Below are positions 7,368-31,017 of a stretch of 31,017 nucleotides of DNA, piece by piece. The stretch lies in the NCBI GenBank assembly GCA_964477505.1, contig CAYZDN010000007.1, positions 1 to 31,017 of the forward strand. The letters are read 5' to 3'. The translations under genes were made by a program, and so were the position numbers. The notes under the pieces are model-generated. The model had not been told where the DNA came from. It searched no databases and saw only the letters and a list, made by a program, of their open reading frames with translations. Position 1 is the stretch's first letter, and the number at the start of each line of letters is the position of its first letter. The stretch comes from an uncultured Nitrosopumilales archaeon (lineage in GTDB: Archaea; Thermoproteota; Nitrososphaeria; Nitrososphaerales; Gagatemarchaeaceae).

Positions 7368-8372
7368 TTGAACGACGTCATCTCCGTTGAGAAGCTCGAA
7401 GTGGTGTACGGGGACGGTACCCGTGCGGTCGACGGAATAGACTTCACAGTCGGTGACGGCGAATTCTTCGGATTCCTCGGCCCGAACGGCGCTGGCAAGA
7501 GCACGACGATCAAGGTCCTGACCACGCTTCTGAGGAAGACGGGAGGCAAAGCCACGGTGCTGGGGCACGACATCGGTTCCGCCGACAAGAAGGTACGGCC
7601 GCTCATCGGCGTCCAGAGCCAAGAGACCGTTGTGGACGGAGACCTCACGGGGAGAGAGAACATGATCCTCCAGGGCAATCTGCACGGCATGAGAGGTAAG
7701 GAGCTTGACGCCCGGGTTGACGAGCTCCTGAAGCTGGTCGAGCTGTCGGACGTGGCAGACAGAAGGGCCGCGTTCTATTCGGGTGGGATGAAGAAGAGGC
7801 TCGACCTGGCGTCGTCCCTCGTCCACAAACCCAAGCTCCTGTTCTTAGACGAGCCGACCACCGGGCTGGACCCCCAGTCCAGGGCCGGCGTCTGGAAATA
7901 CCTGAGGAAACTGAACAAGGAGGACGGAATCGCGATATTCCTTACCACCCAATACCTGGAAGAAGCTGACAAGCTCTGCGACAGGCTTGCGATCATCGAC
8001 CATGGCCAGATAATAACCGGCGGGTCGCCTTCGGAGCTCAAGGCAGAGATAGGCGCGGACGCCATAACGCTCAGCATCGAAGGGAACGGCGGGAACGTGG
8101 AGACCGCCCAGGGGGTCCTGAAAGGGATCTCGGGCATCAAGGAGGTCGTCCAGGGGGACGGTGGGATAACGGTCTACGCGATGAATGCGAGCACCCTCGT
8201 GCCCGACATAGTGAGGTCCTTCGACGCCAAAGGACTCAAACTCGCCTCCATCAATCTTTCGAGGCCAAGCTTGGACGACGTGTTCCTGAAGCACACAGGA
8301 CATAGAATAAGGGCGGAGGAGCTCGTCAGGCCCCAATCGAAGATGATGGGAAGGTTCGGGAGGAGGCACTAG
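7368..8372 (+). CDS. ABC-2 exporter ATP-binding subunit (DrrA-like)
   Basis: GPNGAGKST, YSGGMKKRL, LFLDEPTTGLDP, TTQYLEEAD. Confidence 0.95.
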   Translation: MNDVISVEKLEVVYGDGTRAVDGIDFTVGDGEFFGFLGPNGAGKSTTIKVLTTLLRKTGGKATVLGHDIGSADKKVRPLIGVQSQETVVDGDLTGRENMILQGNLHGMRGKELDARVDELLKLVELSDVADRRAAFYSGGMKKRLDLASSLVHKPKLLFLDEPTTGLDPQSRAGVWKYLRKLNKEDGIAIFLTTQYLEEADKLCDRLAIIDHGQIITGGSPSELKAEIGADAITLSIEGNGGNVETAQGVLKGISGIKEVVQGDGGITVYAMNASTLVPDIVRSFDAKGLKLASINLSRPSLDDVFLKHTGHRIRAEELVRPQSKMMGRFGRRH

Positions 8373-8375
8373 GAG

Positions 8376-9158
8376 ATGTCCCTGGCTTTCGACACCTGGG
8401 TCCTGTTCGTCAGGTCGATCAAGAAGCTGGTCCGGACCCCCATACTTCTGTTCTTCTCTCTCTTCCAGCCCATAATCTTCCTCTTCCTGTTCACCGCGCT
8501 GTTCTCGAAGGCAGGCTCGTTATTCGCATCCTCTGCGGGGTTCCCCGGGGCCACCTACACCAGCTTCGCCCTTGCCGGCATCGTGCTGCAGAACGGGTTC
8601 TCGAGCGCCCTTCAATCTGGCACGTCGGTGGTCGACGACCTCACCTCGGGTTTCCTCGAGAAGGCCCTCGTCACTCCCGTGAACAGGTCGGCGATTCTTT
8701 TCGGAAGGCTGCTGAGCGACGCGTTCAGGGTCGTCGTTCAATCCGCCATCATCCTCGGGCTGGCGTACTTTGCCCTGGGCGCGGACCTTACCACAGGGGT
8801 TCCGGGCGTGCTGATGATATTCCTGATCGTGGCCTTCTTCGGCCTCGCCTGGTCTGGCATATCCCTGACCATAGGGCTCAGGACCAAGAGCGCCGAAACG
8901 GTCTTCGGTCTAGGAGGGATACTGACCTTCCCCCTGCTGTTCATGAGCACCGCCCTCGTCCCAGTGAGCCAGATGGAGAGCTGGATGCAGACCGTGTCCC
9001 AGCTCAACCCTATCAGCTATACGGTGGACGCTGTCAGGGCCCTGACGTTGAGCGGGTTCGACTGGACGAAGATACTCAACGCCATCGGGTACGTAGGAGG
9101 GATAGCCGTGGTGTCGCTGGGGGCGACCCTCTACCTGTTCAGGAAAGTCGTCTCCTAG
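8376..9158 (+). CDS. ABC-2 exporter permease (DrrB-like)
   Basis: Six TM helices; GFLEKALVTPV.R, STALVP and NPISY motifs. Confidence 0.92.
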   Translation: MSLAFDTWVLFVRSIKKLVRTPILLFFSLFQPIIFLFLFTALFSKAGSLFASSAGFPGATYTSFALAGIVLQNGFSSALQSGTSVVDDLTSGFLEKALVTPVNRSAILFGRLLSDAFRVVVQSAIILGLAYFALGADLTTGVPGVLMIFLIVAFFGLAWSGISLTIGLRTKSAETVFGLGGILTFPLLFMSTALVPVSQMESWMQTVSQLNPISYTVDAVRALTLSGFDWTKILNAIGYVGGIAVVSLGATLYLFRKVVS

Positions 9159-9173
9159 CCTCGGACGTATCGG

Positions 9174-9207
9174 GAGCACGTTACTCTTTTAGGGAAAGAG
9201 GATGCTC
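9174..9207. promoter_or_regulatory. Intergenic inverted repeat (operator or hairpin)
   Basis: GAGCA-cgtta-CTCTTT-taggg-AAAGAG-ga-TGCTC, ending 2 nt before ATG 9210. Confidence 0.4.
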
Positions 9208-9209
9208 TC

Positions 9210-9866
9210 ATGACCATGGGCGCCATCGCGGACGAAGGAAGGCGAGAAGTCTTCGCGTCCGTGGAAGCCATAGGGCGCATCGGCTCACGGTGGTCGGACT
9301 ACCTGAGACGGAGAGAGAGACACCTCGTCATCGCGAAGTCCCTGGTCTACGGTGGTTTGATCTTCTTCCTCCTCGTGGCGGCGGTCATTTCATACGTGGC
9401 CTCGGAGTATGACATCGCTTACTTCGTGGCACACAAGGAGCAGTTCGTCCCCTACTTCGAGGTCGCGATCTTGATCGGGGTGGGAACCGTCGTCGCCTCT
9501 CTGGCCATCCTCAACAGGCGGACCGAGTCGAGGATGAGGGAGGTGTCGGAACTGGTCAACCAGCTGAAGGGAGGGGCAGGGGGCCACGAAGAGGCCTGGA
9601 AGGCGCTTGCCGCGACTAGAAAGATGCTCGACGCGCTCCCCGAGATCGCCCGGCCCAGGACCCAGGACGCGCTGATCTACGGCCTGCTTTCCTTCGTCTT
9701 GGTTGCGATAGTCGCCAGACCCGTCGTCGGAGTGGCGGTGGCGCTCGTCATCTTCCTCTACTTCAGGTACGAGGGGACGAAGACGTACCAGACGGAGCTT
9801 TCGCGCCTCGAAGAGCAGAGGAAGGTATTCGAAGAGAAGATGCAGGTTTTCACTCAGTCGTTGTGA
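9210..9866 (+). CDS. Hypothetical membrane protein
   Basis: Two pairs of hydrophobic helices separated by a charged helical linker; charged C-terminal helix. Confidence 0.7.
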   Translation: MTMGAIADEGRREVFASVEAIGRIGSRWSDYLRRRERHLVIAKSLVYGGLIFFLLVAAVISYVASEYDIAYFVAHKEQFVPYFEVAILIGVGTVVASLAILNRRTESRMREVSELVNQLKGGAGGHEEAWKALAATRKMLDALPEIARPRTQDALIYGLLSFVLVAIVARPVVGVAVALVIFLYFRYEGTKTYQTELSRLEEQRKVFEEKMQVFTQSL

Positions 9867-9873
9867 TATATGT

Positions 9874-10149
9874 TTGGACAGGCCAGACCTCTACGTGGTA
9901 GCCAGGTTCCTGGACATACTCTACGAGCAGGGCACCCCAATGAAGAGGACCAACATCCAGATGCGCCTGGGGGTGAACTACCCAAGGTTCACAGAGTACC
10001 TCGAGTGGCTCCAGTCGAAGGGGTTCGTAGCCTTGGGGGAGGGACAGGACGACGGAGCCGAAGTCTTTTCCCTCAGTAACAAGGGGAACGAAGCATACCA
10101 CCGGATCGTAGACTGGATCCGTGAGACGATGGAAGGAATCAAACTGTAG
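9874..10149 (+). CDS. Small winged helix-turn-helix protein (predicted archaeal transcriptional regulator)
   Basis: KRTNIQMRLGVNYPRFTEYLEWLQSKGFV...FSLSNKG fits a wHTH. Confidence 0.85.
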   Translation: MDRPDLYVVARFLDILYEQGTPMKRTNIQMRLGVNYPRFTEYLEWLQSKGFVALGEGQDDGAEVFSLSNKGNEAYHRIVDWIRETMEGIKL

Positions 10150-10223
10150 GGACGGAGGTACTGGGGGAACGTATCATCAACACGCGACGCTTATTACCAC
10201 CGGACCGGCCCCCTTCCCAGGAA

Positions 10224-11156
10224 ATGGCCCCCTCTCTTGAAGCGGTCGGGCTCTCTAAGAAGTACGGGAGCTTCGCTGCGGTCTCAGGGCTGAACATCAA
10301 GGTCCAAGGGACGAAGTGCGTGGGATTCCTCGGCCCAAACGGTGCAGGGAAGACCACCACGATGAAGATGTTCACTGGCCTGATAGGGGCGACGGAGGGG
10401 ACGGCCCTGATAAACGGGGTCGACGTCAGCAAGGACAAGAAGGGGGCGCTCGCTTCCTGCTCGACTCTGATCGAGACCCCTGAAATCTATCCGGCGCTCA
10501 CGCCCAAGGAAGCCCTGAGCATGCTTTGCGAGCTAAGGGGGGTCTCGGCCGGGGAGAGAAACAAGAGAATCGACGAGGCGCTCGGCCGGGTCAAGATGAC
10601 GGAATGGGAGAACAAGAAGCTGGGAGGGTTCTCGAAGGGGATGAAGCAGCGGGTCAACGTCGCTTCGACCCTCCTCAGCGACCCCCAGGTCATCATCATG
10701 GACGAGCCATCGACGGGGCTCGACCCGAGGGGGATGAGCGAAGTGAGGGACATCGTGAAGTCCCTTGGGGACAGGCTCGTGTTCATGAGTTCACACCTTT
10801 TGGCAGAGGTGACAGAGGTTTGCCAAGAGGTTGCGATGATCGACCACGGAAAGCTGCTTGTCTATGACACAATCGACAACGTGACCTCCAAGTTCTCAGG
10901 GGGCTCCGGCACGGTCAGGATAGGGTTCGCTAGGCCCCTCGACGTCCAGACCGGGACGACTATTTCGAACCTCGAGGGGGTCACTTCGTTCTCGAGGGCA
11001 AACGACAGGCACGCGCTGGTGAAGTTCGACCCCAAGGTCATCACCCAAGAGAAGCTGTTCGAGAAGATCGCAGGGCTGAAGGCGGGCGCCCAGACCTTCG
11101 AGTCAGAAGCCGGGCTGGAAGACGTGTATCTCAGCCTCATCAAGGAGACGCTGTAG
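10224..11156 (+). CDS. ABC transporter ATP-binding subunit
   Basis: GPNGAGKTT, FSKGMKQR, IIMDEPSTGLDP, SSHLLAEV. Confidence 0.95.
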   Translation: MAPSLEAVGLSKKYGSFAAVSGLNIKVQGTKCVGFLGPNGAGKTTTMKMFTGLIGATEGTALINGVDVSKDKKGALASCSTLIETPEIYPALTPKEALSMLCELRGVSAGERNKRIDEALGRVKMTEWENKKLGGFSKGMKQRVNVASTLLSDPQVIIMDEPSTGLDPRGMSEVRDIVKSLGDRLVFMSSHLLAEVTEVCQEVAMIDHGKLLVYDTIDNVTSKFSGGSGTVRIGFARPLDVQTGTTISNLEGVTSFSRANDRHALVKFDPKVITQEKLFEKIAGLKAGAQTFESEAGLEDVYLSLIKETL

Positions 11157-11158
11157 GA

Positions 11159-12013
11159 ATGGCCGAGTCCTCGGCGACCCATGCCAGGGTGGGCAGCCTC
11201 GCCCAGGTGGGCATCATAGCGAAGTACAACTTCCTGAACTATTTCAGGGCGAGGAGATTCTACGTGATGCTCGCAATCATCCTGATCATCGGCGGACTGG
11301 TGACGGGGCTGGTGGCTTACTACGGGGTCGCAACACTCGGCGGCAATACCGCGCTCGGATTCTACGGAGCCGGATGGGGAGGCTTCGCGACGTTTGTGAT
11401 CATCCTAAGCGCCGTGTTCTTCGGCGGAGACGCCATTTCTGGGGAGTTCCAGAACAGGACCGGCTACTTCCTGGTGCCCAACCCCATAAGGAGGTCGGCG
11501 GTGTACGTCGGAAAATACCTGGCCGCCCTCGCGGCCTCCTCGCTCGTCCTAGGGACCTTCGCCGTGATCATGATTGCCAACGGCCTCTACTATTTCCCCG
11601 GGTCGATGCCCTGGGAGTTCGTCCAATCGTTGGCGTTCGCGTGGGTCTACCTCATCGCGGTCATGTCGCTCGCTTTCGCCTTCAGTTCGCTCTTCAAGAG
11701 CACGTCGATCTCGGTCCTCATGACGGTGATACTACTGCTGTTCGTCTTCAACATAGTCGATGCTCTCGTTTCTATCGTCGCTGGCTATGAGCCGTGGTAC
11801 TCGATCGTCTACGGCGCGCAGATAATCGGCGACATATTGACCGTGCCGTACCCGGCTCACTTCACTCCGGGGATTGGGGGAGAAGGGAGGTTCCGGGGGA
11901 TACCCTCCTACGCACCCACCGTCCCTGAAGGGCTGGCGATCCTCCTGGTCTACCTCGTAGTGATGGCGGTGGTCGGGCTCGTCCTGTTCCAGAAGAAGGA
12001 GTTCACGTCCTAG
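11159..12013 (+). CDS. ABC-2 family permease
   Basis: Six TM helices; DAISGEFQNRTGYFLVPNPIRR..VYVGK signature. Confidence 0.9.
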   Translation: MAESSATHARVGSLAQVGIIAKYNFLNYFRARRFYVMLAIILIIGGLVTGLVAYYGVATLGGNTALGFYGAGWGGFATFVIILSAVFFGGDAISGEFQNRTGYFLVPNPIRRSAVYVGKYLAALAASSLVLGTFAVIMIANGLYYFPGSMPWEFVQSLAFAWVYLIAVMSLAFAFSSLFKSTSISVLMTVILLLFVFNIVDALVSIVAGYEPWYSIVYGAQIIGDILTVPYPAHFTPGIGGEGRFRGIPSYAPTVPEGLAILLVYLVVMAVVGLVLFQKKEFTS

Positions 12014-21130: not shown

Positions 21131-23815
21131 TCAGCGCCTCTTCGCCCCCAGGGGGAGCGGCGCTTCGACCTGTGCGACCTTCACCCGGAAGTCGACCGCG
21201 GTCGCCTTGTCCCCGTGCATGATCACGGGGTTAAGGTCGAGCTCCACGACCTCCGGGAGGTCTTCCACCATGGCAGAGATGCGGAGGATCACCTGTTCGA
21301 GCGCGGGGACGTTGTAAGACGGCCCGCCCCTGTAGCCTGTGAGCAGGGGGAAGGTCTTGAGCGAGCGCACCATCTCGTCGGCGTCCCGCTCAGTAAGAGG
21401 AGCCAGGCGCACAGCTGCGTCCTTCAGGAGCTCCACCATGGTCCCACCCGCTCCGCACGCCACCAGGGGTCCGAAGACGGGATCCCCCGTTACCCCGACT
21501 ATCATCTCCGCCCCGGCGGGGACCATCTCCTGGACCAGGAAACCTTGAGGCTTGAAGCCCTGCCCCTGTAGCCTGGCCGCCATGGACACGGCTTCCCGCC
21601 TCACCGAGTCTTTGCCAGACAAACCGACCTTGACCGCGCCGCTTTCTGTCTTGTGCAGCAACCCCTCCGCGACACCCTTCAGGACCACGGTCCCCCCGAG
21701 CCCCTCCGCGGCACTGGCCGCCTCTTCCGGGGTCATGGCCTTCGTCGTCTTGACTATCGGGATCCCATAGGCGTCAAGGAGCGCCCTCGCGTCTTCGGGG
21801 GACAGCCAACCAGCCCCTTTCGCAAGGGCCTTGGCAACGATCCCCGCCCCTTCGTTCCTTCTGAGGCCGGCGAACCTTGGGATCCGGCTCGGCGGGGTCC
21901 TGAGCCAGGCGCCGTACTCGGCGGCCCTCGCGAGCGCCCTTGCGGCGACCTCCGGGAAGGGATAGGATGGGACCCTGACTTCGCCTTCGGAGAGTATCTC
22001 TGAAAGGCCATGGTGGGCCATGAAGGTGGCCAGGATCGTGACCTTGCCGCGCAGGTCCCGGGCCGCGCTCAGTATCTCCCTTGCCACGTCCTCGGGCTTT
22101 ATCGCTATCGGGGGGACGAAGAGCACCAGTATCGAGTCGATGTCCGCGTCTTTCGCGACGGCTCTCATGACCCTCCCGAAGTCTGGGGCGGTTGCGGACG
22201 CGATCATGTCCACCGGGTTCTTCACCCCGGCGTCCTTGTTGAGGTGAGCCTTCAGCTCGTCCTGGACGGCGGCGGAGAACTCGGGGACCACCAGCCCCCT
22301 GTCCTCGCAGGCGTCGGCGGCCAGGATCCCGGCGCCCCCCGCGTTGGTGATCACCGCCACCCGCTTCCCCTTCGGTATCGGCTGGGTGGTGAGCAGGGCT
22401 GCGACGTCGAACATCTCCCCAAGCGTGTCCATCCTGATGACTCCGGCCTGATGGAAGAGGGCGTCCACGGTGACGTCCGAAGAAGCGATCAGCGCCCCGG
22501 TGTGGGACTGGGTCGCCCTGAAGCCGGCCGACGATCTGCCGCTCTTGACGGCCAGTATCGGTTTCCTCCTCGTCACCCGCTTGGCGATCCGTGCGAACTT
22601 TCGGGGGTTTCCGAACGATTCAAGGTAAAGGAGGACCAGGTCCGTCATGTCGTCCGCCTCCCAATAGGTGAGGAGGTCATTGCCGGAGATGTCGGCCTTG
22701 TTTCCGACCGAGACGAAAGAAGACATGCCGAGCCCCAGCTTGTTCGCGTGCTCGATGACCGCTATCCCGAGGGCCCCTGACTGCGAGAGGAAACCCATCC
22801 TCCCGGGCTTGGGGACGAAGGGAGAGAACTGCCCGTTCAGGCCGACCCGCTCCTCCGTGTTGACGACCCCCATGCAGTTGGGGCCGATGAGTCTCATCCC
22901 GGTGTCGCGGCATACCTCCAGAAGCTGCTTCTGCAGGTCCTTCCCCTCGCCCCCGACTTCGGCGAAGCCGGCGGAGATCACCACCAGCGCCTTCACCCCC
23001 TTCTGGGCGCACTCCTTGGCGACCGGGATCACGAAGCGGGCAGGGACGACAATTATGGCAAGGTCGACCTTCCCCGGGCAGTCGAGGATTGACTTGTACG
23101 CGGGGACGGACTGGATGACCTCGGAGCTTGGGTTGACGGGGTAGACCGGCCCGTTGAACGCCCCGTCGAGGACGTTGTGGAAGAGCCTCCCGCCGATCGC
23201 GTTGCGGTCCTTGGACGCCCCTATCACGGCCACGCTCCTGGGTTCGAGGAAGTTCCTCACTGCGGCGATCACGGAGGACGATTCCCGCCTTTCGAACGCC
23301 TCCACGGTGGCGAGCTCCACGGAGGTAGGGAACTCCACTTTCAGGACCCCTGGCTCGATCCTGGTGGAAGTAGGAAAGCCCAGCTCGTTGAGGAGCTCGA
23401 TCATGGCCGTGTTCTCCGGGATCACAGAAGCCTCGAAGAGGTCTATCCCTTCTCGGGCGGCGGACTGGGCTAGCTGCCCCAGCAGGACCGTCCCGAGCCC
23501 CTTCCCCTGCAGTGCGTCTCCAATCACGACCCCGACTTCGGCTCTGGTCTCGTCGCCCGTCCCGTGGAAAGCAAGCCCGACGATCGAACCCTCACGGAGG
23601 GCCGCCAACACGTGCACGTGCCCTCCAGGGGCGAGCCTTCTGACGAGCTCGTTTCGATCCCCGAACGCCTCGTACATCAGGGCGACCGTCTTATCGGTAA
23701 GCGACCCGGCGAACCTTTGCAGCAACCCGAGGTCGTCCGCACCCAGGGCTCTCACCCGGACGATTGACCCGTCTGACAGCACCACGTCGGTGGACGATTC
23801 TTCCAACCTGTTCAT
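21131..23815 (-). CDS. GNAT + NDP-forming acyl-CoA synthetase fusion (type II Pat-like protein acetyltransferase architecture)
   Basis: N-terminal GNAT (RAEVG, LQGKGLG). CoA-binding domain (SVAVIGAS, VYPVNP, GPNCMG). Ligase domains (SQSGALG, SHTG, TNAGGAG, NPVD). ATP-grasp (LLHKTESGAV, VQEM, ELDLNP). Confidence 0.92.
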   Translation of the reverse strand: MNRLEESSTDVVLSDGSIVRVRALGADDLGLLQRFAGSLTDKTVALMYEAFGDRNELVRRLAPGGHVHVLAALREGSIVGLAFHGTGDETRAEVGVVIGDALQGKGLGTVLLGQLAQSAAREGIDLFEASVIPENTAMIELLNELGFPTSTRIEPGVLKVEFPTSVELATVEAFERRESSSVIAAVRNFLEPRSVAVIGASKDRNAIGGRLFHNVLDGAFNGPVYPVNPSSEVIQSVPAYKSILDCPGKVDLAIIVVPARFVIPVAKECAQKGVKALVVISAGFAEVGGEGKDLQKQLLEVCRDTGMRLIGPNCMGVVNTEERVGLNGQFSPFVPKPGRMGFLSQSGALGIAVIEHANKLGLGMSSFVSVGNKADISGNDLLTYWEADDMTDLVLLYLESFGNPRKFARIAKRVTRRKPILAVKSGRSSAGFRATQSHTGALIASSDVTVDALFHQAGVIRMDTLGEMFDVAALLTTQPIPKGKRVAVITNAGGAGILAADACEDRGLVVPEFSAAVQDELKAHLNKDAGVKNPVDMIASATAPDFGRVMRAVAKDADIDSILVLFVPPIAIKPEDVAREILSAARDLRGKVTILATFMAHHGLSEILSEGEVRVPSYPFPEVAARALARAAEYGAWLRTPPSRIPRFAGLRRNEGAGIVAKALAKGAGWLSPEDARALLDAYGIPIVKTTKAMTPEEAASAAEGLGGTVVLKGVAEGLLHKTESGAVKVGLSGKDSVRREAVSMAARLQGQGFKPQGFLVQEMVPAGAEMIVGVTGDPVFGPLVACGAGGTMVELLKDAAVRLAPLTERDADEMVRSLKTFPLLTGYRGGPSYNVPALEQVILRISAMVEDLPEVVELDLNPVIMHGDKATAVDFRVKVAQVEAPLPLGAKRR

Positions 23816-23979
23816 GCTCTAACCTGTGCCGGCCGGGGACCATTCCCTCAATAAACTCTCACACGATTCTCAGTTCCCATAACGACGGACGGAATCGGCC
23901 CCTCGACGGTTGTCTCATGTGAAGGCCTTCGGGCGCCTCGAAGTCCTTAAGAAGACAATTGGGAGGCGCGCTCAGAGAC

Positions 23980-24966
23980 ATGGTGCCAAGGAGGGGGATG
24001 ACATCCGCGGGAGTCGTGGTCCTCCTGATGATTCTCGCCCTAGCCGCCGTCTCCACCGTGTACATCACCTCAAGTCAATCTTCCAACGACCAACTGAACT
24101 CGCAGAACCAGCAGATCTCAGCCCTGCAGGCTGAGCTCCAGAATCTGACGAAGGAGTTCTCACTGGGGACGGGGACGGCGGGCGCCAACCTGACCCTTCC
24201 GGTGATGAATCAGGCGCCCACTATCAGGACCATTCGGGAGACCTGGTATCTGTCGCCTTCGGCCCACCAAGACAGGTTCGACCCTTCGTTCGTCATAGTC
24301 AACCAGGGGGACACCGTGAGACTCACCCTGATCGACAACGACACGGTTGCCCACGACTTCGTGGTGGGACCGCCCTACAACATCATCGTGAACGCGACCG
24401 TCCCTGGTTTGATCAACGACCTGACCGGCCAGATGTTCACCACCCCATCGCGTGGGAACTCCGCTGGGTGCTGCGGGCTCGGGGAGCCGGTCATCACGGG
24501 GAGCAAAGGCAACGTGTCCGCGACGTTCTCCTTCGTCGCAGAGTGGTCAGGGATCTATGAGTTCGTGTGCACTTACCACGCGCAGGTGGGGATGGTCGGT
24601 TACCTCGTGGTCCTCCCCAACGCAGCCTACAAGCAGTCAGGCACGAGCAGCACGGCCACAAGCGCGGCCAGAGGCTCCGTGGCCGTGAGCATCGCCCAGG
24701 GGGCCGGAGTCCCGCCGAACAACGGTTTCACACCTCGGAACATCACCGTGGTGATAGGGGTGAACAACACGGTCATCTGGACCAACAACGATGTTTCGAT
24801 ACACACCGTGACTTCGACCGTTGTGCCGTCCGGCGCCTCCCCCTTCGGCTCCGGATACCTGAACACGGGGGGCTCGTTCTCCTACACCTTCGCCGTCCCA
24901 GGAGTGTACGAATACCATTGCCAGATTCATCCCTGGATGACCGGAAGCGTTACCGTGAAGGCCTAG
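23980..24966 (+). CDS. Membrane-anchored protein with two cupredoxin (type-1 copper) domains
   Basis: N-terminal TM helix and coiled coil. Domain 1 has HDF...CTYHAQVGM; domain 2 has HTV...CQIHPWM. Probable start is ATG 23980. Confidence 0.9.
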   Translation: MVPRRGMTSAGVVVLLMILALAAVSTVYITSSQSSNDQLNSQNQQISALQAELQNLTKEFSLGTGTAGANLTLPVMNQAPTIRTIRETWYLSPSAHQDRFDPSFVIVNQGDTVRLTLIDNDTVAHDFVVGPPYNIIVNATVPGLINDLTGQMFTTPSRGNSAGCCGLGEPVITGSKGNVSATFSFVAEWSGIYEFVCTYHAQVGMVGYLVVLPNAAYKQSGTSSTATSAARGSVAVSIAQGAGVPPNNGFTPRNITVVIGVNNTVIWTNNDVSIHTVTSTVVPSGASPFGSGYLNTGGSFSYTFAVPGVYEYHCQIHPWMTGSVTVKA

Positions 24967-25286
24967 CGCATCGCTTCGGTCTGGATAAGCTCCGAGAGCT
25001 TCTGGAAATAGAGGCGGGTGGCCAGCGGCATCCCATCGAGGTTCCTCTCGATCGCCTCTGTGACGTACTTTATCGCCCGCCGAGAGGTCTTGAACTCGAA
25101 CTTCATCGGGAGGATGGGGTCCTGGGCGACGTCGATCGAATCCTGGAGGTGGCGCGGAGCCTCGGCCCTGGCGTCGCTCGCTATCTTCTGATACCAACCA
25201 AGCAGGACGTTGGGCTCGAACCCCTGCTTCAGCTCCTCGATCTCGCGGAGGAGCCTGTTCAGGACAAGCATCTCTTCGTTCGCCAA
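24963..25286 (-). CDS. Hypothetical protein
   Basis: 107-aa ORF with plausible protein composition that fills the space between flanking genes; 4-nt convergent overlap with the cupredoxin gene. Confidence 0.65.
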   Translation of the reverse strand: MANEEMLVLNRLLREIEELKQGFEPNVLLGWYQKIASDARAEAPRHLQDSIDVAQDPILPMKFEFKTSRRAIKYVTEAIERNLDGMPLATRLYFQKLSELIQTEAMR

Positions 25287-25356: not shown

Positions 25357-25770
25357 CTAGCTGCAACGCATATCGAAGATCTCGGTCTTCTCGTACTCTG
25401 CTTCCCACATGTGCGTGCTGTTCCTCCCGCGACGCACCGCCAGAAGCGTGTAACCTTCGGGTGCACCGTCGTACGCCTTCTGGAGGATTGACTCGGCCGG
25501 CTCCGAGTCTTCGTCGAAGCTTTGGACGATATGCTGCCTGAACTTCTCTATCTCTTTCATGTAGTCCTTCAGGCAGAGTGCCTTTCCCTGGAGCCTGGAA
25601 GATGTGATGAGCTTGACCTCCGCCCCGCACGCCTCGCAGGTGACCTTCTTCATCCCATCGTCGAGGCAGACCCTTCCGACCCCTACCACCATGGGGAAGG
25701 TCCCAGGCTGGGGTTCGGCGGCTCCGCACAGGACGCACTTGGCCGACCCCTTGGTCGAAGCGTGCTGCAT
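25357..25770 (-). CDS. Hypothetical protein with two putative Zn-binding knuckle pairs
   Basis: CVLC...VCLDD and CEAC...LCLKD. Confidence 0.65.
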   Translation of the reverse strand: MQHASTKGSAKCVLCGAAEPQPGTFPMVVGVGRVCLDDGMKKVTCEACGAEVKLITSSRLQGKALCLKDYMKEIEKFRQHIVQSFDEDSEPAESILQKAYDGAPEGYTLLAVRRGRNSTHMWEAEYEKTEIFDMRCS

Positions 25771-25827
25771 CGGCCTTGCAACTGCTCGCCAATCGATTTA
25801 AGGTTGCCCCCACGGACGAAAGGGTCA

Positions 25828-26916
25828 GTGAAGATTGAGCAGGTGTCGACCTACCCGATAGCCATCAAGGCGAAAGAGGACCTGAAAGGGGGCACCTTCG
25901 GCTACCCCCATTACCAGACGGTCCTTGTGAAGGTCACCGTCGACGCAGCCGAGGGGTGGGGGGAAGCCATGACCCGCTCTGACCCGAAGGCGACAGCCAC
26001 CCTCGTAGAGCACCTTGGGAGGAAGGTGACGGGGACCCAGTTCGGTGAGGTGGCCGACGTCTGGAGCGGACTCTGGAGGGACCTGCGGGTCCGCGGCCAT
26101 ACCAGGGGAGTGGACGTGGAAGCCCTGAGCGGCCTCGAGATGGCGCTCCAAGACGCGGTCTGCAAGCTCAGGGGGTTACCGCTGTGGAAGGCGCTTGGCG
26201 GAAGGGGCCTCCCCGAAGTCCCCGTATTCGCCGGGTCTCTTTTCTCTTCCAGGGGTCCGTTCGAAGACCAGGTCGAGTTCGCAAAGGGACGCGAGCTTCT
26301 CGGCGCGAAGGTAAAGGTGGGGTTCGGGGTCTCGGAGGACTCGAAAGCGCTTCAGAAGGTGAAAAGGCTCTGGCCGGACGGCATGCTCGTGGCTGATGCG
26401 AACGGGGCATACGATTCCGAGAGCGCCGCGAAGGCGTGCTCGGCGTTCTCTTCGCTGGACCTCGCTTGGTTCGAAGAACCGGTGCTGTCGGACGACCTGG
26501 CCGGGTACAGGTCGCTCAAGGGCTCGAATGTCAGAATCGGCGCCGGGGAGAGCTGGTTCGCGGGCGACTTCCAGACACCGATCGAGGAAGGGCTCGTGGG
26601 GGTGGTCGAGCCGAGCGTAAGCAGGTGCGGCGGGGTCATGGTCGAGTTTGAAGCCGCGAAGAAAGCGAAGGCCCGCGGCATCGCATTCTCGCCCATGACA
26701 GGGATGAATTCGGCCGTGTCGCTGGCCGCCTCCATTCACCTGGCTTCTGCGGTGGGGAGCATCGGAGTGGAATACAACCCGTTCCCCAACCCGATTCAGA
26801 CCGACTTGGCGGACGGGCTGGAGGAGCCCAGAGGAGGGAAGATGAAAGTCCAGTCGGGACCGGGGCTGGGGATCGAAGTAGACCAACGTTTCGTGAACTC
26901 CAACACCATCCCGTAG
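25828..26916 (+). CDS. Mandelate racemase/muconate lactonizing (enolase superfamily) enzyme
   Basis: True start is probably GTG 25828 (MKIEQVSTYP); the track's 5' extension overlaps the opposite-strand gene. Motifs: GWGE, ALSGLEMALQD, KVKVG, DANG, WFEEP, GES, EY. Confidence 0.92.
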   Translation: MKIEQVSTYPIAIKAKEDLKGGTFGYPHYQTVLVKVTVDAAEGWGEAMTRSDPKATATLVEHLGRKVTGTQFGEVADVWSGLWRDLRVRGHTRGVDVEALSGLEMALQDAVCKLRGLPLWKALGGRGLPEVPVFAGSLFSSRGPFEDQVEFAKGRELLGAKVKVGFGVSEDSKALQKVKRLWPDGMLVADANGAYDSESAAKACSAFSSLDLAWFEEPVLSDDLAGYRSLKGSNVRIGAGESWFAGDFQTPIEEGLVGVVEPSVSRCGGVMVEFEAAKKAKARGIAFSPMTGMNSAVSLAASIHLASAVGSIGVEYNPFPNPIQTDLADGLEEPRGGKMKVQSGPGLGIEVDQRFVNSNTIP

Positions 26917-26917
26917 G

Positions 26918-27697
26918 TCAGAGCAGCTTTGCGATCTCGTCGACGTTGGAGAGCTTCGCCAGCAGCTTGTATCCCCCCGCCTCCTTGTCGATCCCGCTCG
27001 TGACCAGGATGGGGTCGATCCCCGCATGGACCGCGCCGGCGATGTCGGTGTCCAGCTGGTCGCCGACCATTACCGCTTCGCCCTTCCTGACCCCGCCCCG
27101 CTTGAGGGCGGTCCTGAACATCAGAGTGGACGGCTTCCCTATCACCGTGGACTTCTTTCCGCCCGCATATTCCACGGCCCTGACGAGCGGGCCTGCTGCC
27201 ATGGCAGGTCCGTTCTTGTACATGAAGAGCGCCGAGTCGTGCGTCGCGACGATCCGTGCCCCGTTCCGCGCCACCCTGGCGGCGCGGTCCAGGGTGTCGT
27301 AGGTTGCATTCCTGTCGAGCCCTATCACCACAAAGTCAGCCTCGTCCCCGTCGGCTCTCGTGTGGCCACACTTTCTCATCTCGGCGTCGAGCCCACGCTC
27401 TCCCACGAGAAAGTAGGTCGACCTTCCCCACTTGTCTCTGATGTATTCGGAAGTGAGCTGGGCGCTCGTAAGGACTTCTTCCCTCCTCACCGGTATCTCG
27501 AAGTCCACCAACCGCCGGAAGACTGTCTCCGAAGCATCGGTGCTGTTGTTGGTGAGGACGAACAACTTCCTCCCCTCCGCCCTGAGGGCATTGACAGCTT
27601 CCGTCCCGCCGATCTTGGTCCTGCTCTCCTTCCCCCGGTAGAAGACCCCGTCGAGGTCGAACAGGAACAGCTTCTTCCCAGAAAGGACGCGTTTCAT
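26918..27697 (-). CDS. HAD-IIA (NagD-like) phosphatase
   Basis: FDLDGV, LTNNS, IGKPS, VGDQLDTDI. Confidence 0.95.
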   Translation of the reverse strand: MKRVLSGKKLFLFDLDGVFYRGKESRTKIGGTEAVNALRAEGRKLFVLTNNSTDASETVFRRLVDFEIPVRREEVLTSAQLTSEYIRDKWGRSTYFLVGERGLDAEMRKCGHTRADGDEADFVVIGLDRNATYDTLDRAARVARNGARIVATHDSALFMYKNGPAMAAGPLVRAVEYAGGKKSTVIGKPSTLMFRTALKRGGVRKGEAVMVGDQLDTDIAGAVHAGIDPILVTSGIDKEAGGYKLLAKLSNVDEIAKLL

Positions 27698-28122
27698 CCT
27701 TCTACCGTCACCTCGCCGCTCGCTCCGTCTAGCTCCACCCTGGAGCCCGCTCGAACCTTGGCATATGCGTCGCGCGGGACCCCGGAGATGACCGGTATCT
27801 CTTTTCCGTAGACCAGCCTGGCCATTACCGAGCCGATCACCGACGAGAGGTCGACCACATCCGTGACCAACGCAGCCGGGTGGTTTCCGTGGCGGACCGT
27901 CTCGAGGAACCAGGACGATGCGGTGGTGGAGCCTTTCCCGAACGGGTAGAACAGGACCTTTCCCTTCACGTCCTGCCCCCTGATGTCGCTCCTGACGTCG
28001 GCCACCTTCCCACTTGCTGGGTCGACACCATGGGCAAAGGTGAACGCTTTCATCGATACGAGGGCCTCCCCCGACGCCTTCCCGGGGGTCAGACCCCTCC
28101 CCTTGATCTTCGCGGCGGTCAA
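27694..28122 (-). CDS. Aconitase X small (swiveling) subunit, DUF126
   Basis: G.A.GEALVS, GVDPASG, GKVLFYPFGKGST. Confidence 0.92.
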   Translation of the reverse strand: MTAAKIKGRGLTPGKASGEALVSMKAFTFAHGVDPASGKVADVRSDIRGQDVKGKVLFYPFGKGSTTASSWFLETVRHGNHPAALVTDVVDLSSVIGSVMARLVYGKEIPVISGVPRDAYAKVRAGSRVELDGASGEVTVEG

Positions 28123-29327
28123 GTCGTGGTCTCCTCTATGATTGCCTTCTGGGAGGCGTACCGGATCTTGATCTCTCCTTCCGATGAGACTATCTCGGCG
28201 AGCTTCGCCGAGTTTGTCATCACCACGTTGAAGCCGAGCTTCTTCAGCGGGGATATCTCAGCGTCCGTGCTGTGCGTTATCCTGGCCCCTGCGGCTTCGA
28301 TCGTCGATGAGATTCCGGTCCGCTCTGCCATCTCGTAGGCCTGGGCGGAGGTGTAGGCGTACATCTTGGTCCCTCTTTTGAGATTCCTACCCTCGAGCAT
28401 CCTGGCGAGCTCGCCTAGCTCGCCGGCGGAGAGGTGAGGGACCCCGAACGCCACGAGGTCAGGGGGCTCGTCTGTCTGGTTGAGGTCCGATTCAATCTCG
28501 GAAATGCCGGAGCGGCTTATCTCGATCTCCTCGACCTTCTCTCCCGCCGACGCGTCGAGGACCGTCGTCGACCCCGGGGTTATCCCAGGCAGGTGGATCA
28601 TCGTTACCGGTCCGGCGGCGGCCGCGGCTGCACCCAGGTGCTTTAGCTGGTCAGAGCCTATCTTTGCAGGGAGTCCGGCGAGCGCCGGGACGCGTGACCC
28701 TGACATGCGCCCCACGAAGAAACCTATCGAGCGATAATCCAGGTCGGATAGCGGGCCGACGTCCGTCTTGAACGCCAACTTCGCCGCCCTGTTTTCCTCG
28801 TCCAGCATCCCAAACTTCGGAGTCAGGCCGAGGATCGCGCAGGCGAGATCCATCCCGGCCGTTATCTTGTTTGACCTGCAGCCAAGAACCGAGTTGGCGA
28901 AGACGACGGCGCTCGACTCTGCCCAGGCTACGGTTTCTCCCGCCTTCGGGAAGTTGCAGACCTGGTATTGGACGCAGGTCCAGCACCTCATCCCCCCTAG
29001 CTTCGCGTAAGCGTCGCAAAGCCTGAACTGCTTCCTGGCATACTCTTCGGGGATCCCGAAGCTCTTCCAGTTCTGGAGGTCGATGCTGGCCGGGTCGACC
29101 GAGGTCGGGACGGCGAACTTACCCCCCGAGTCGGCGAACTTCTCGATGACGTCTATCCCGGCGTCGTGGAGGCTGGAGTAGTGGGCCAGGACGTGGGCGG
29201 ACTTGATGGGGACGAGAAGGTCGGCGCCGACGGCATCTCCGACCTTCGCGACTATCTCCATGGCGAACCGTTTCGCTTCCCCCCCTTCTCCGCGGAGCAG
29301 CCTCTCCTGCCCCGAGTCCAGATGCAA
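28119..29327 (-). CDS. Aconitase X large subunit, DUF521 (atypical cluster-ligand motifs)
   Basis: AWAESSAVVFANSVLG.R.N, AILGLTPKFG, GAAAAAAG, PH.S..EL and VMTNSAK. TTG start. Confidence 0.9.
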   Translation of the reverse strand: MHLDSGQERLLRGEGGEAKRFAMEIVAKVGDAVGADLLVPIKSAHVLAHYSSLHDAGIDVIEKFADSGGKFAVPTSVDPASIDLQNWKSFGIPEEYARKQFRLCDAYAKLGGMRCWTCVQYQVCNFPKAGETVAWAESSAVVFANSVLGCRSNKITAGMDLACAILGLTPKFGMLDEENRAAKLAFKTDVGPLSDLDYRSIGFFVGRMSGSRVPALAGLPAKIGSDQLKHLGAAAAAAGPVTMIHLPGITPGSTTVLDASAGEKVEEIEISRSGISEIESDLNQTDEPPDLVAFGVPHLSAGELGELARMLEGRNLKRGTKMYAYTSAQAYEMAERTGISSTIEAAGARITHSTDAEISPLKKLGFNVVMTNSAKLAEIVSSEGEIKIRYASQKAIIEETTT

Positions 29328-29382
29328 GCGAGCCCGCGGAGGATTAGCATCAGTTAAAAGCTCGCCCTGCGTTCTGCGTCCG

Positions 29383-30531
29383 TTGAAGTTCTCCTATTTC
29401 CTTCCCACCAAGCTCGACTTCGGGTTCGGCGCGGTGGCGAGCGTCGGAGCCGAAGCGAAGGGGCTCGGCGCATCAAGGGCCCTGGTCGTAACGGACAAGG
29501 TCATGGTCAAGACAGGGATAGCCCAGCGGGTGACCGAAAGCTTGGGAGGAGTGGACCACGACGTCTATGACGGGGTCGAAGCGGAGCCGCGGATCGAAGC
29601 AGCCCAGGCGGTGGCCGACGGTGTCCGCTCCAAGAAGTACGACCTTGTCGTAGGCGTGGGGGGAGGGAGTTCCATGGACATGGCAAAGGTCGCCGCAGGG
29701 TTCGCGACCAATCAGGGAGCCGCGAAGGCGTTCGTTGGGAACAACCAGTTCGCGAAGGAGCCCCTACCGTCCATCATGGTCCCCACCACCGCAGGGACAG
29801 GAGCCGAGTTGACGGTCACCTCGATGGTCACCGTTGAAGGGCACAAACAGTGGATCAACAGCCCGCTGCTGCTCCCCTCGGTGGCGGTCGTGGACCCGGA
29901 ACTGACGATGAGCATGCCCCCCGGGGTCACGGCCGCGACGGGGATGGACGCCCTCTGCCACAACACCGAGGCATACCTTTCGAACATGGCAAACCCGATA
30001 ACGGACTCTGCGGCGCTGGAGGGGATCAGGATAATCGTCGGGAACCTCGAGAGGGCGTTCGATTCAGGGAGCGATAGAGCGGCGAGGGAGTCGATGAGCC
30101 TCGGGGCGCTCATGGGAGGGATTGCCCTACAGGCGAAGCAGGTCTACGGCCATTCGATCGGGTACACGATAGCGACCAGGTTCAGGCTCCCTCACGGCGT
30201 GTCATGCGGGCTCCCCCTCCCGTACATCATCTCAAACTATGCCGTGGCTTGCGCACCGAAGATGAAGAAGCTGGCAGAAGCATATGGCGTGCCCCCGGCT
30301 GACGACCCGTCCATACTGGGGATCGCCATCGCAGAGAAAGCCAGGGGGATCGCAACCCATCTGAAAATCCCCACGACGTTGAAGGAGCTCGGGGTGGCAG
30401 AGGCCGACCTGCCTGCTCTGGCCGAGGAGTGCGTCGTCATGTACCCCAGGCCAAGCAGCCCGCTCGTCTTTGACGTGAAGAGCATGAGCGGCCTGTATCG
30501 GCGGATGTGGGACGGGGAACTCTCGGCCTAA
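29383..30531 (+). CDS. Iron-containing (group III) alcohol dehydrogenase
   Basis: GGGSSMD, PTTAGTGAE, DALCHNTE, GHSIG and PHG metal ligands. Probable TTG start at 29383 (MKFSYFLPTK), with TTAAAAG about 25 nt upstream. Confidence 0.93.
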   Translation: MKFSYFLPTKLDFGFGAVASVGAEAKGLGASRALVVTDKVMVKTGIAQRVTESLGGVDHDVYDGVEAEPRIEAAQAVADGVRSKKYDLVVGVGGGSSMDMAKVAAGFATNQGAAKAFVGNNQFAKEPLPSIMVPTTAGTGAELTVTSMVTVEGHKQWINSPLLLPSVAVVDPELTMSMPPGVTAATGMDALCHNTEAYLSNMANPITDSAALEGIRIIVGNLERAFDSGSDRAARESMSLGALMGGIALQAKQVYGHSIGYTIATRFRLPHGVSCGLPLPYIISNYAVACAPKMKKLAEAYGVPPADDPSILGIAIAEKARGIATHLKIPTTLKELGVAEADLPALAEECVVMYPRPSSPLVFDVKSMSGLYRRMWDGELSA

Positions 30532-30571
30532 GTCTTATAGGCCTCCGCGAAGCTTGGTGCGTAGACGGCTC

Positions 30572-31017
30572 ATGAAGATGCTCATTCAAGGACAGCTAGT
30601 TGACGCCCAGGGCGCGGACACGATCAAGGTGGCAAACCCCGCGACGGGTGAAATAGTGGATTCGGTCCCAAAGGGTGGGAGGGAGGACGCCAAGAGAGCA
30701 ATCGATGCCGCCAGCGACGCCTACAAGGTGTGGTCCGAGACCCCGGCATTGGAGCGGTCGCGGGTCCTACTGAGGATAGCGGAAGTGGTGAGGGCCAACG
30801 TCGAGGACCTTGGAAGGAGCCTGACGATCGAGCAGGGGAAGCCGCTGGGTGAAGGGAAGAGCGAGATCAACTCGTTCGCCAACACCTGCGAGTACTACGC
30901 GGGGCTCATCGGCAGGGAAAGGGGGGCGCAGACCCCGTTCTCCACGGGAGAGGGCTTCTTCATCGTGCCGACGAGGCCACTTGGGGTCGTGGGGGCCATA
31001 CTACCCTGGAACTTCCC
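30572..31017 (+). CDS. NAD(P)-dependent aldehyde dehydrogenase, N-terminal part (runs off the window)
   Basis: Manual translation: MKMLIQGQLV...VANPATGEIVDSVP...ERSRVLLRIA...LTIEQGKPLGE...PLGVVGAILPWNF. Confidence 0.93.
   Translation, partial: MKMLIQGQLVDAQGADTIKVANPATGEIVDSVPKGGREDAKRAIDAASDAYKVWSETPALERSRVLLRIAEVVRANVEDLGRSLTIEQGKPLGEGKSEINSFANTCEYYAGLIGRERGAQTPFSTGEGFFIVPTRPLGVVGAILPWNF

Follow-up and report, generated by a model that had tools for sequence, protein, structure and literature searches.

The window analyzed is a 31,017 nt stretch of DNA from mine-drainage metagenomes (contig CAYZDN010000007.1 of assembly GCA_964477505.1), assigned to an uncultured Nitrosopumilales archaeon (order Nitrososphaerales, family Gagatemarchaeaceae in GTDB). 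The stretch is present in three DNA runs from one mine-drainage study; no RNA data set is found among the runs listed. Two adjoining genes on the minus strand encode the large, catalytic subunit (28119..29327, 402 aa) and the small, swivel subunit (27694..28122, 142 aa) of an aconitase X (AcnX). They differ from the AcnX enzymes of known activity in the residues expected to anchor the iron-sulfur (Fe-S) cluster as in those expected to recognize the substrate. Relatives, with identities of 60-90%, were sampled as 182 database clusters at 90% identity and as 25 species-level genome loci of Nitrososphaerales.

The large subunit matches PF04412 along its full length (402.7 bits in the Pfam search, cut-off 31.5), and it matches chain 7cnr_A of TkAcnX, a mevalonate-5-phosphate dehydratase (phosphomevalonate dehydratase, PMDh; HMMER alignment, expectation value (E) 6.9e-56). 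The AlphaFold2 (AF2) model, built on 140 homologs, has a mean predicted local distance difference test score (pLDDT) of 97.6 and the three-domain fold of AcnX, as indicated by its superposition on 7cnr_A (Foldseek E 7e-42, TM-scores 0.91/0.95, root mean square deviation 1.7 Å, 33% identity). The Glu129-Ser130-Ser131 and Lys361 residues of TkAcnX are common to the window protein, in which the retained Glu137, Ser138 and Lys375 are each invariant in 181 or 182 of the 182 clusters. The start codon is TTG in the window (29325-29327), where a TTTTAA box precedes it by about 30 nt; of the 25 related species 18 likewise use TTG, and the others ATG.

The TTG start of the small subunit gene overlaps the TGA stop of the large subunit gene (cTTGAcc), and the two genes are translationally coupled. 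The small subunit matches PF01989 (70 bits, cut-off 27) and 7cnr_B (E 3.2e-22). The G-K-G-S65-T66-T67 motif (27922..27939, minus strand) aligns with the GKGSTV sequence of TkAcnX, in which Ser62 is the catalytic and Thr63 the carboxylate-binding residue (PMC8184944), and is kept in the 25 related loci, in keeping with the preliminary description of this DNA, according to which the small subunit retains GKGST. The predicted heterodimer of large and small subunits scored 0.94, the best control 0.01, with runs sharing at least 98% of the contacts and a partner pLDDT of at least 91. Among 78 solved complexes 51 attained this mark, as did 2 among 108 mismatched pairs; the pass may stem from likeness, a similar complex (7cnr) having already been solved. 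The predicted docking of the two chains follows that of the solved heterodimer.

The cluster of TkAcnX is ligated by Cys110, Cys283 and Cys342 (PMC8184944), at sites A, 1 and B, respectively; their counterparts in the Aeropyrum pernix (Ap) enzyme are Cys122, Cys297 and Cys356. When the window protein is aligned to 7cnr_A with HMMER, C118 falls on Cys110, V296 on Cys283 and D355 on Cys342 of the large subunit, so that only site A is retained of the three sites of the Type-IIb enzymes. The preliminary description had reported that GCPH is changed to GVPH and DTC to STD by multi-base codon changes, and that the N-terminal TC motif is expanded to C-W-T-C-x5-C; translation of the minus strand bears this out throughout. 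The GVPH motif (28434..28445) carries Val296 at the site 1 position (Cys283 in Tk, Cys297 in Ap). STD (28263-28271) is part of the S-T-D355-A-E357 motif (28257..28271), which has Asp at site B (Tk Cys342, At Cys508) and Glu at the site C position (At Cys510); in the alignment D355 and E357 fall at or beside Cys508 and Cys510 of the Agrobacterium Type-I enzyme. The V296 and D355 codons (GTC and GAC) are each two base changes away from TGC. The stretch C115-W-T-C118-x5-C124 (28956..28985) translates as CWTCVQYQVC and joins the site A residue to two clade-specific Cys; C115 and C118 sit in a loop made by residues 114-119 of the AF2 model, followed by one helical turn (residues 120-123) and by C124. 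A possible additional ligand is C163 (28839..28841), which is invariant in the clade and in most of its sister clade. Every Cys of the large subunit is located within residues 104-163, and no Cys is found beyond residue 170 in 171 of the 182 clusters; any thiolate-bound centre must therefore be anchored on that segment alone. In the Aeropyrum PMDh, either of the changes C297A and C356A abolishes the cluster and leaves less than 4% of the activity (PMC10040528); canonical cluster ligation is therefore unavailable to the window protein.

Several hundred relatives of the large subunit, 77-90% identical to it, were retrieved from 5.8 billion proteins, all from metagenome-assembled genomes of Nitrososphaerota/Thaumarchaeota, and the 25 genome loci encode proteins 63-82% identical to it. 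C104, C115, C118, C124, C163, D355 and E357 are invariant in the 182 clusters, and position 296 is occupied by Val in 180 of them and by Ile in 2; C150 is freely variable. C115, C118 and C124 are all kept in 24 of the 25 genome loci. Asp78, Asp355, Glu357, Glu378, His49, His54 and His230 are likewise fixed in the clade. For 310 pairs, the median ratio of nonsynonymous to synonymous substitution rates (dN/dS) is 0.14, and all the focal Cys, Asp and His residues are encoded by varying synonymous codons. Homologs sharing GVPH, STD and CxxCx5C under purifying selection, which had been suggested as a check, thus exist in number, and the suspicion that the substitutions might be unique to this sequence and accompanied by relaxed selection is contradicted, the pattern being clade-wide and selection strong. 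Decay into a pseudogene is ruled out by the intact frame, the low dN/dS and the fixed motifs. The protein is best described, from its Pfam score, model and selection pattern, as a member of an intact but divergent AcnX subfamily, as first proposed. Natural variants informative on the identity of the ligands are found at the locus L017 (6001-7203), which has Ser (AGC) at position 124, and at the loci L022-L025, which have Phe or Ser at position 104.

The origin of this arrangement was traced in an IQ-TREE tree in which the five focal columns (115, 118, 124, 296 and 355) were masked; intermediates came from a search that started from the nearest outgroup. The 150 representatives ranking best at 50% clustering have the site A Cys almost throughout; outside the clade, Cys occupies site B in 97% and site 1 in 86% of the representatives. 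Residues at the five positions are given here as 115-118-124, 296 and 355, separated by slashes. The outgroup has the canonical pattern x-C-x/C/C. C124 was gained, and the site 1 Cys lost, in a clade with an ultrafast bootstrap support of 94, on the stem of which an acidic residue (Glu or Asp) also arose at position 357. Within this clade, a sister branch features three Cys, in the pattern x-C-C/(G, I or V)/C (P0121, P0271, P0273, P0274 and P0277), and nested in it is a pair of proteins with four Cys, in the pattern C-C-C/G/C (P0272 and P0275). The clade including the window protein (support 100) has C-C-C/V/D. The near-universal Pro found two residues after the site A Cys became Gln, His or Asn, or stayed Pro; this change marks a remodelling of the site A loop. 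Only the L017 protein has fewer than three Cys at the five positions. Because at least three Cys are nearly always kept across the series, migration of the ligands appears more likely than loss of the cluster, and simple loss is hard to reconcile with the series as read from these alignments.

The residues surrounding the substrate are changed as well. The loop H45-V-L-A-H49-Y-S-S-L-H54 (29166..29195, minus strand) replaces the phosphate-binding loop of PMDh (Gly48-Ser50 and Asn53 in Tk); L47, A48, H49, S51 and H54 are clade-specific invariants, and in the predicted complex the loop touches the GKGST loop of the small subunit. In TkAcnX, Gly48-Ser50, Asn53 and Asn79 bind the phosphate of mevalonate-5-phosphate (PMC8184944). 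Gly48-Val49-Ser50 is replaced by Ala48-His49 in the window protein, Asn53 by Ser52, Asn79 by Asp78, and Tyr365 by Ile379, while the alignment indicates that the contacts of TkAcnX with the carboxylate and the hydroxyl of the substrate are kept. Nor does the protein conform to the second known activity, dehydration of cis-3-hydroxy-L-proline (C3LHyp): the C3LHyp equivalog NF051439 gave 258.5 bits for the large and 75 bits for the small subunit, the cut-off being 700. Of the residues typical of the Agrobacterium enzyme AtAcnX (Trp35, Cys71, Thr72, Asp203, Ile206, Tyr534, Cys508 and Cys510) only Thr72 has an equivalent, T67; W35 is replaced by A30, C71 by T66, D203 by L47, Y534 by I379, C508 by D355 and C510 by E357. 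Since the carboxylate and hydroxyl contacts are kept and the substrate landmarks replaced, the reaction is probably an alpha,beta-elimination in which a beta-hydroxy-carboxylate loses water, the substrate being a new one. The new substrate of the preliminary description is thus upheld insofar as the landmarks of both known activities are changed; what the substrate is we infer from the neighbouring genes, described below.

The genome which carries the window also carries a canonical AcnX, as the preliminary description advised checking. The assembly (599 kb, 57% complete) encodes on contig 42 a second large subunit scoring 516 bits to Pfam, part of a canonical mevalonate module (7714-11874, L001) in which genes for a UbiX-type flavoprotein, the AcnX small subunit, the AcnX large subunit and a UbiD-family protein lie side by side. 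This copy has the motifs SCTCTPY, GCPHCS and DTCMVV; each of its three canonical ligand sites is occupied by Cys, and all four PMDh landmarks (Gly48-Val49-Ser50, Asn53, Asn79 and Tyr365 of Tk) are kept. It is 35% identical to the large subunit of the window, which has no UbiD or UbiX gene next to it. The contig 42 pair accounts for the mevalonate pathway; the window pair, as far as sequence can tell, is not the mevalonate enzyme. Mevalonate-5-phosphate dehydratase was accordingly discarded as a candidate for the window pair, the canonical copy being present elsewhere and the landmarks lost here.

Within the GTDB family, about 46 of 97 genomes, representing 7 of 10 genera, carry the window paralog (identity of at least 60%); several near-complete genomes of the window's own genus gave no such match in this survey. 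Across the phylum, 400 evenly sampled genomes yielded nothing above 42% identity to it. The 56 genomes of a neighbouring family of the same order contain one distant match each, of the canonical type by score. From this distribution, the paralog is an accessory gene of one family of Nitrososphaerales.

Directly downstream of the small subunit gene lies a gene encoding a HAD-IIA phosphatase of the NagD/p-nitrophenyl-phosphatase type (26918..27697, minus strand), which adjoins the AcnX genes in about 20 loci. Convergent with the AcnX operon is a gene for an enolase-superfamily (MR_MLE) protein of the sugar-acid dehydratase/cycloisomerase type (25828..26916, plus strand; PF13378 and PF02746), syntenic in about 17 loci and found also beside the AcnX genes of the sister clade; its best PDB relatives (4ggb, 3bjs and 5olc) are sugar-acid dehydratases or cycloisomerases, all with weak scores. 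Divergent from the operon are the genes for an Fe-dependent alcohol dehydrogenase (29383..30531, plus strand; PF00465 and PF25137; likely TTG start at 29383; PDB match 3owo, E 9e-57) and for the N-terminal part of an aldehyde dehydrogenase, which runs off the window (30554..31015, plus strand; PF00171). The NCBIfam models nearest to the latter fragment are those of succinate-semialdehyde and 2,5-dioxovalerate dehydrogenases, with scores all far below the cut-off. The order aldehyde dehydrogenase, alcohol dehydrogenase, divergent AcnX large subunit, AcnX small subunit and HAD phosphatase, convergent enolase-superfamily gene is found in about 20 related genomes. AcnX genes without an enolase-superfamily gene are found at L003, L011 and L021, and in a deep member of the clade a branched-chain-type ABC transporter is interposed between the alcohol dehydrogenase and the AcnX large subunit genes.

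Association of the AcnX pair with an enolase-superfamily gene and an aldehyde dehydrogenase recurs around the three-Cys and four-Cys sisters, among those with informative contigs (P0121, P0122 and P0275, on short contigs, were left out). One four-Cys sister (L035, 1-10861) follows genes for a CoxLMS-like three-subunit molybdenum hydroxylase and for CoxG-like, amidohydrolase_2 and amine-oxidase-like proteins; genes for an enolase-superfamily protein and an aldehyde dehydrogenase come after it, and the locus may encode an extended form of the same pathway. The neighbourhood resembles the succession of dehydratase, second dehydratase and semialdehyde dehydrogenase of oxidative sugar-acid pathways, and the substrate of the window enzyme is probably an intermediate of an accessory module of organic-acid or sugar-acid catabolism. 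A complete genome of the same genus lacking AcnX (L041, G446:C1:106000-121000, compared with window positions 25357-31015) features, in the same order, adjacent aldehyde dehydrogenase and HAD phosphatase genes and those of p137 and p107, and misses the alcohol dehydrogenase, both AcnX subunits and the enolase-superfamily gene. A phosphorylated substrate, with the HAD phosphatase as a dedicated partner, is a candidate weakened by this locus.

Further genes accompany the cluster. A 137-aa protein with Cys pairs near the N-terminus (25357-25770) and a 107-aa protein (24963-25286), both encoded on the minus strand, match no Pfam family; a 335-aa protein has a C-terminal cupredoxin domain (23959-24966, plus strand). 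These three genes keep their place beside the cluster in nearly all related genomes. An 894-aa protein (21131-23815, minus strand), the gene for which is syntenic in several relatives, combines GNAT, CoA-binding, succinyl-CoA-ligase-like and ATP-grasp domains, a fusion with the architecture of a Pat-type protein acetyltransferase or ADP-forming acyl-CoA synthetase.

AcnX enzymes known so far account for two activities and three ligand arrangements: sites A, B and C with a [2Fe-2S] cluster in Type-I, sites A, 1 and B with a [4Fe-4S] cluster in Type-IIb, sites A and B in Type-IIa, which makes the ligand sets of the family plastic (PMC8184944). The Type-IIb PMDhs (Tk TK1249/TK1248, PDB 7CNR/7CNS; Aeropyrum pernix) resemble the window enzyme in two-subunit build, fold, site A and GKGST, and differ from it at sites 1 and B (Val and Asp in the latter), in the phosphate loop, at Asn53, Asn79 and Tyr365, and in the UbiD/UbiX context. 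Type-I AtAcnX has the same fold (TM-scores 0.92-0.93), site A Cys, catalytic Ser and Thr at the position of Thr72, and the positions of its sites B and C hold acidic or ligand-capable residues in the window protein; the window enzyme is in contrast split in two chains and does not keep the other landmarks listed above. Type-IIa enzymes, the bacterial two-subunit C3LHyp dehydratases with two conserved Cys, retain sites A and B, whereas the window enzyme keeps only A and adds two Cys. Uncharacterised subclasses, IIc to IIf, have been reported that are devoid of the landmarks of either known activity (Watanabe et al. 2021, PMC8184944). As described they are bacterial, while the clade analyzed here is confined to one family of Nitrososphaerales; this comparison is by description only. 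No paper reporting the C-x2-C-x5-C/GVPH/STDAE pattern or the intermediate series was found in the AcnX and PMDh literature, of which coverage was limited. Profile matches, fold, subunit build and catalytic residues make the window enzyme a member of AcnX; the features that define each of the two characterised activities are absent from it.

On these grounds it may be proposed that the Lewis-acid centre remains an Fe-S cluster, the protein ligands of which have moved. The two sites of domain 3, 1 and B, would have been abandoned, and the cluster would be held by a compact loop, C115-x2-C118-x5-C124, around the former site A, possibly assisted by C163, Asp355 or Glu357, one iron being left free for the hydroxyl and the carboxylate of the substrate. 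Ser65 would abstract the alpha-proton of the beta-hydroxy-carboxylate, and the metal-bound hydroxyl would be eliminated. A cubane can have three of its irons bound by three Cys that lie within ten residues of each other, as in the CX3CX2C motif of radical-SAM enzymes; CX2CX5C is part of the cluster loop of endonuclease III/MutY. The spacing of Cys 115, 118 and 124 is compatible with such a holding of three irons, though radical-SAM and endonuclease III/MutY loops are alike in spacing and logic only, and have no homology to the window protein. Taken as a whole, the explanation that the two genes encode a functional two-subunit Type II AcnX hydro-lyase, paralogous to the phosphomevalonate dehydratase of the organism, with migrated Fe-S ligands and a substrate other than mevalonate-5-phosphate and cis-3-hydroxy-L-proline, seems to us about evenly balanced between true and false. 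The proposal of the preliminary description, that ligation differs and involves a new Cys triad and/or acidic residues, is in accord with the series, where fewer than three Cys are rarely seen, and with the location of Asp355 and Glu357 at sites B and C; the actual ligation is what we infer from these patterns.

Several observations weigh against ligand migration as just outlined. Near-invariant Cys are five, not three, and the assignment of the triad is not unique. The L017 species has Ser124, and four species (L022-L025) lack C104. The series is made of one lineage, a single trajectory rather than replicated evidence, and its four-Cys intermediates would have no open iron if all four Cys ligate. 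Asp355 and Glu357 at sites B and C make up, with Asp78 and Glu378, an acidic pocket that suits a mononuclear metal or mixed ligation. The new substrate, in turn, is deduced from gene neighbourhood only, and the HAD phosphatase and aldehyde dehydrogenase may not be dedicated AcnX partners: since both persist without AcnX in L041, the phosphatase is possibly a bystander.

The acidic residues lend themselves to mixed Cys/carboxylate ligation of a [2Fe-2S] or [4Fe-4S] cluster, located roughly at the usual AcnX place and bound by C118 together with Asp355 and/or Glu357 or Glu137, C124 or C115 filling the rest, with catalysis otherwise alike. D355 and E357 are invariant and aligned with At Cys508 and Cys510, and the acidic residue at 357 arose alongside C124 in the wider clade; moreover, in the S449C/C510V variant of AtAcnX Glu292 is directly bound to iron, and a Glu ligand has been proposed for Type-IIa enzymes, which have only two Cys (PMC8184944). 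Such an arrangement would leave the two new invariant Cys beside C118 unexplained, and carboxylate ligation of Fe-S clusters is rare; we regard it as unlikely, yet a serious competitor of ligand migration.

As unlikely as mixed ligation, and as serious a competitor, is the replacement of the cluster by a mononuclear Zn2+ or Fe2+ ion, an oxygen-tolerant Lewis acid bound by C115, C118 and C124 or by a set of Cys, Asp, Glu and His residues. A catalytic Zn(Cys)3 site is known in porphobilinogen synthase. Two of the three canonical ligands are lost, the remaining Cys are all confined to residues 104-163, His49, His54, His230, Asp355, Glu357 and Glu378 are specific to the clade, and the DNA comes from mine-drainage metagenomes. 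The AcnX family, however, offers no precedent for such a site, the genome retains a canonical Fe-S PMDh and can thus run an Fe-S AcnX, and a series keeping at least three Cys is equally expected of an Fe-S site. If true, this would be the first cluster-free catalytic aconitase X, one that arose in archaea living in oxic and acidic habitats rich in metals.

Loss of the canonical ligands could also mean that the protein is metal-free or non-catalytic, a pseudoenzyme, binding protein or regulator sharing with AcnX the fold only. This is very improbable: Ser65, Glu137-Ser138 and Lys375 do not vary, new Cys have arisen and become fixed, and the gene is coupled to that of a small subunit with an intact GKGST, amid genes for catabolic enzymes. 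Least tenable of all, and close to dismissal, is the reading as a normal mevalonate-5-phosphate dehydratase or as a duplicate of one in decay: some sources do name relatives in the former way, but the canonical copy with UbiD and UbiX neighbours resides on contig 42 and is only 35% identical, the phosphate-binding landmarks are replaced, and dN/dS is 0.14 across 26 species.

Some sources label relatives of the window protein 'phosphomevalonate dehydratase large subunit'; the data call for caution in naming every archaeal AcnX phosphomevalonate dehydratase. Judged from its conserved residues, the clade would add to the three ligand arrangements a fourth one, with the whole site on one loop, and the living three-Cys and four-Cys forms document the path of re-anchoring. 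They provide a natural test case for the re-anchoring of a catalytic Fe-S site without loss of function, and for the factors that determine whether one fold takes up a [2Fe-2S], a [4Fe-4S] or a mononuclear metal centre. For the host, described as a soil and mine-water archaeon, the AcnX pair would mark an unassigned dehydratase step, part of an accessory catabolic module in those Nitrososphaerales that do not oxidise ammonia and the carbon metabolism of which is poorly known.

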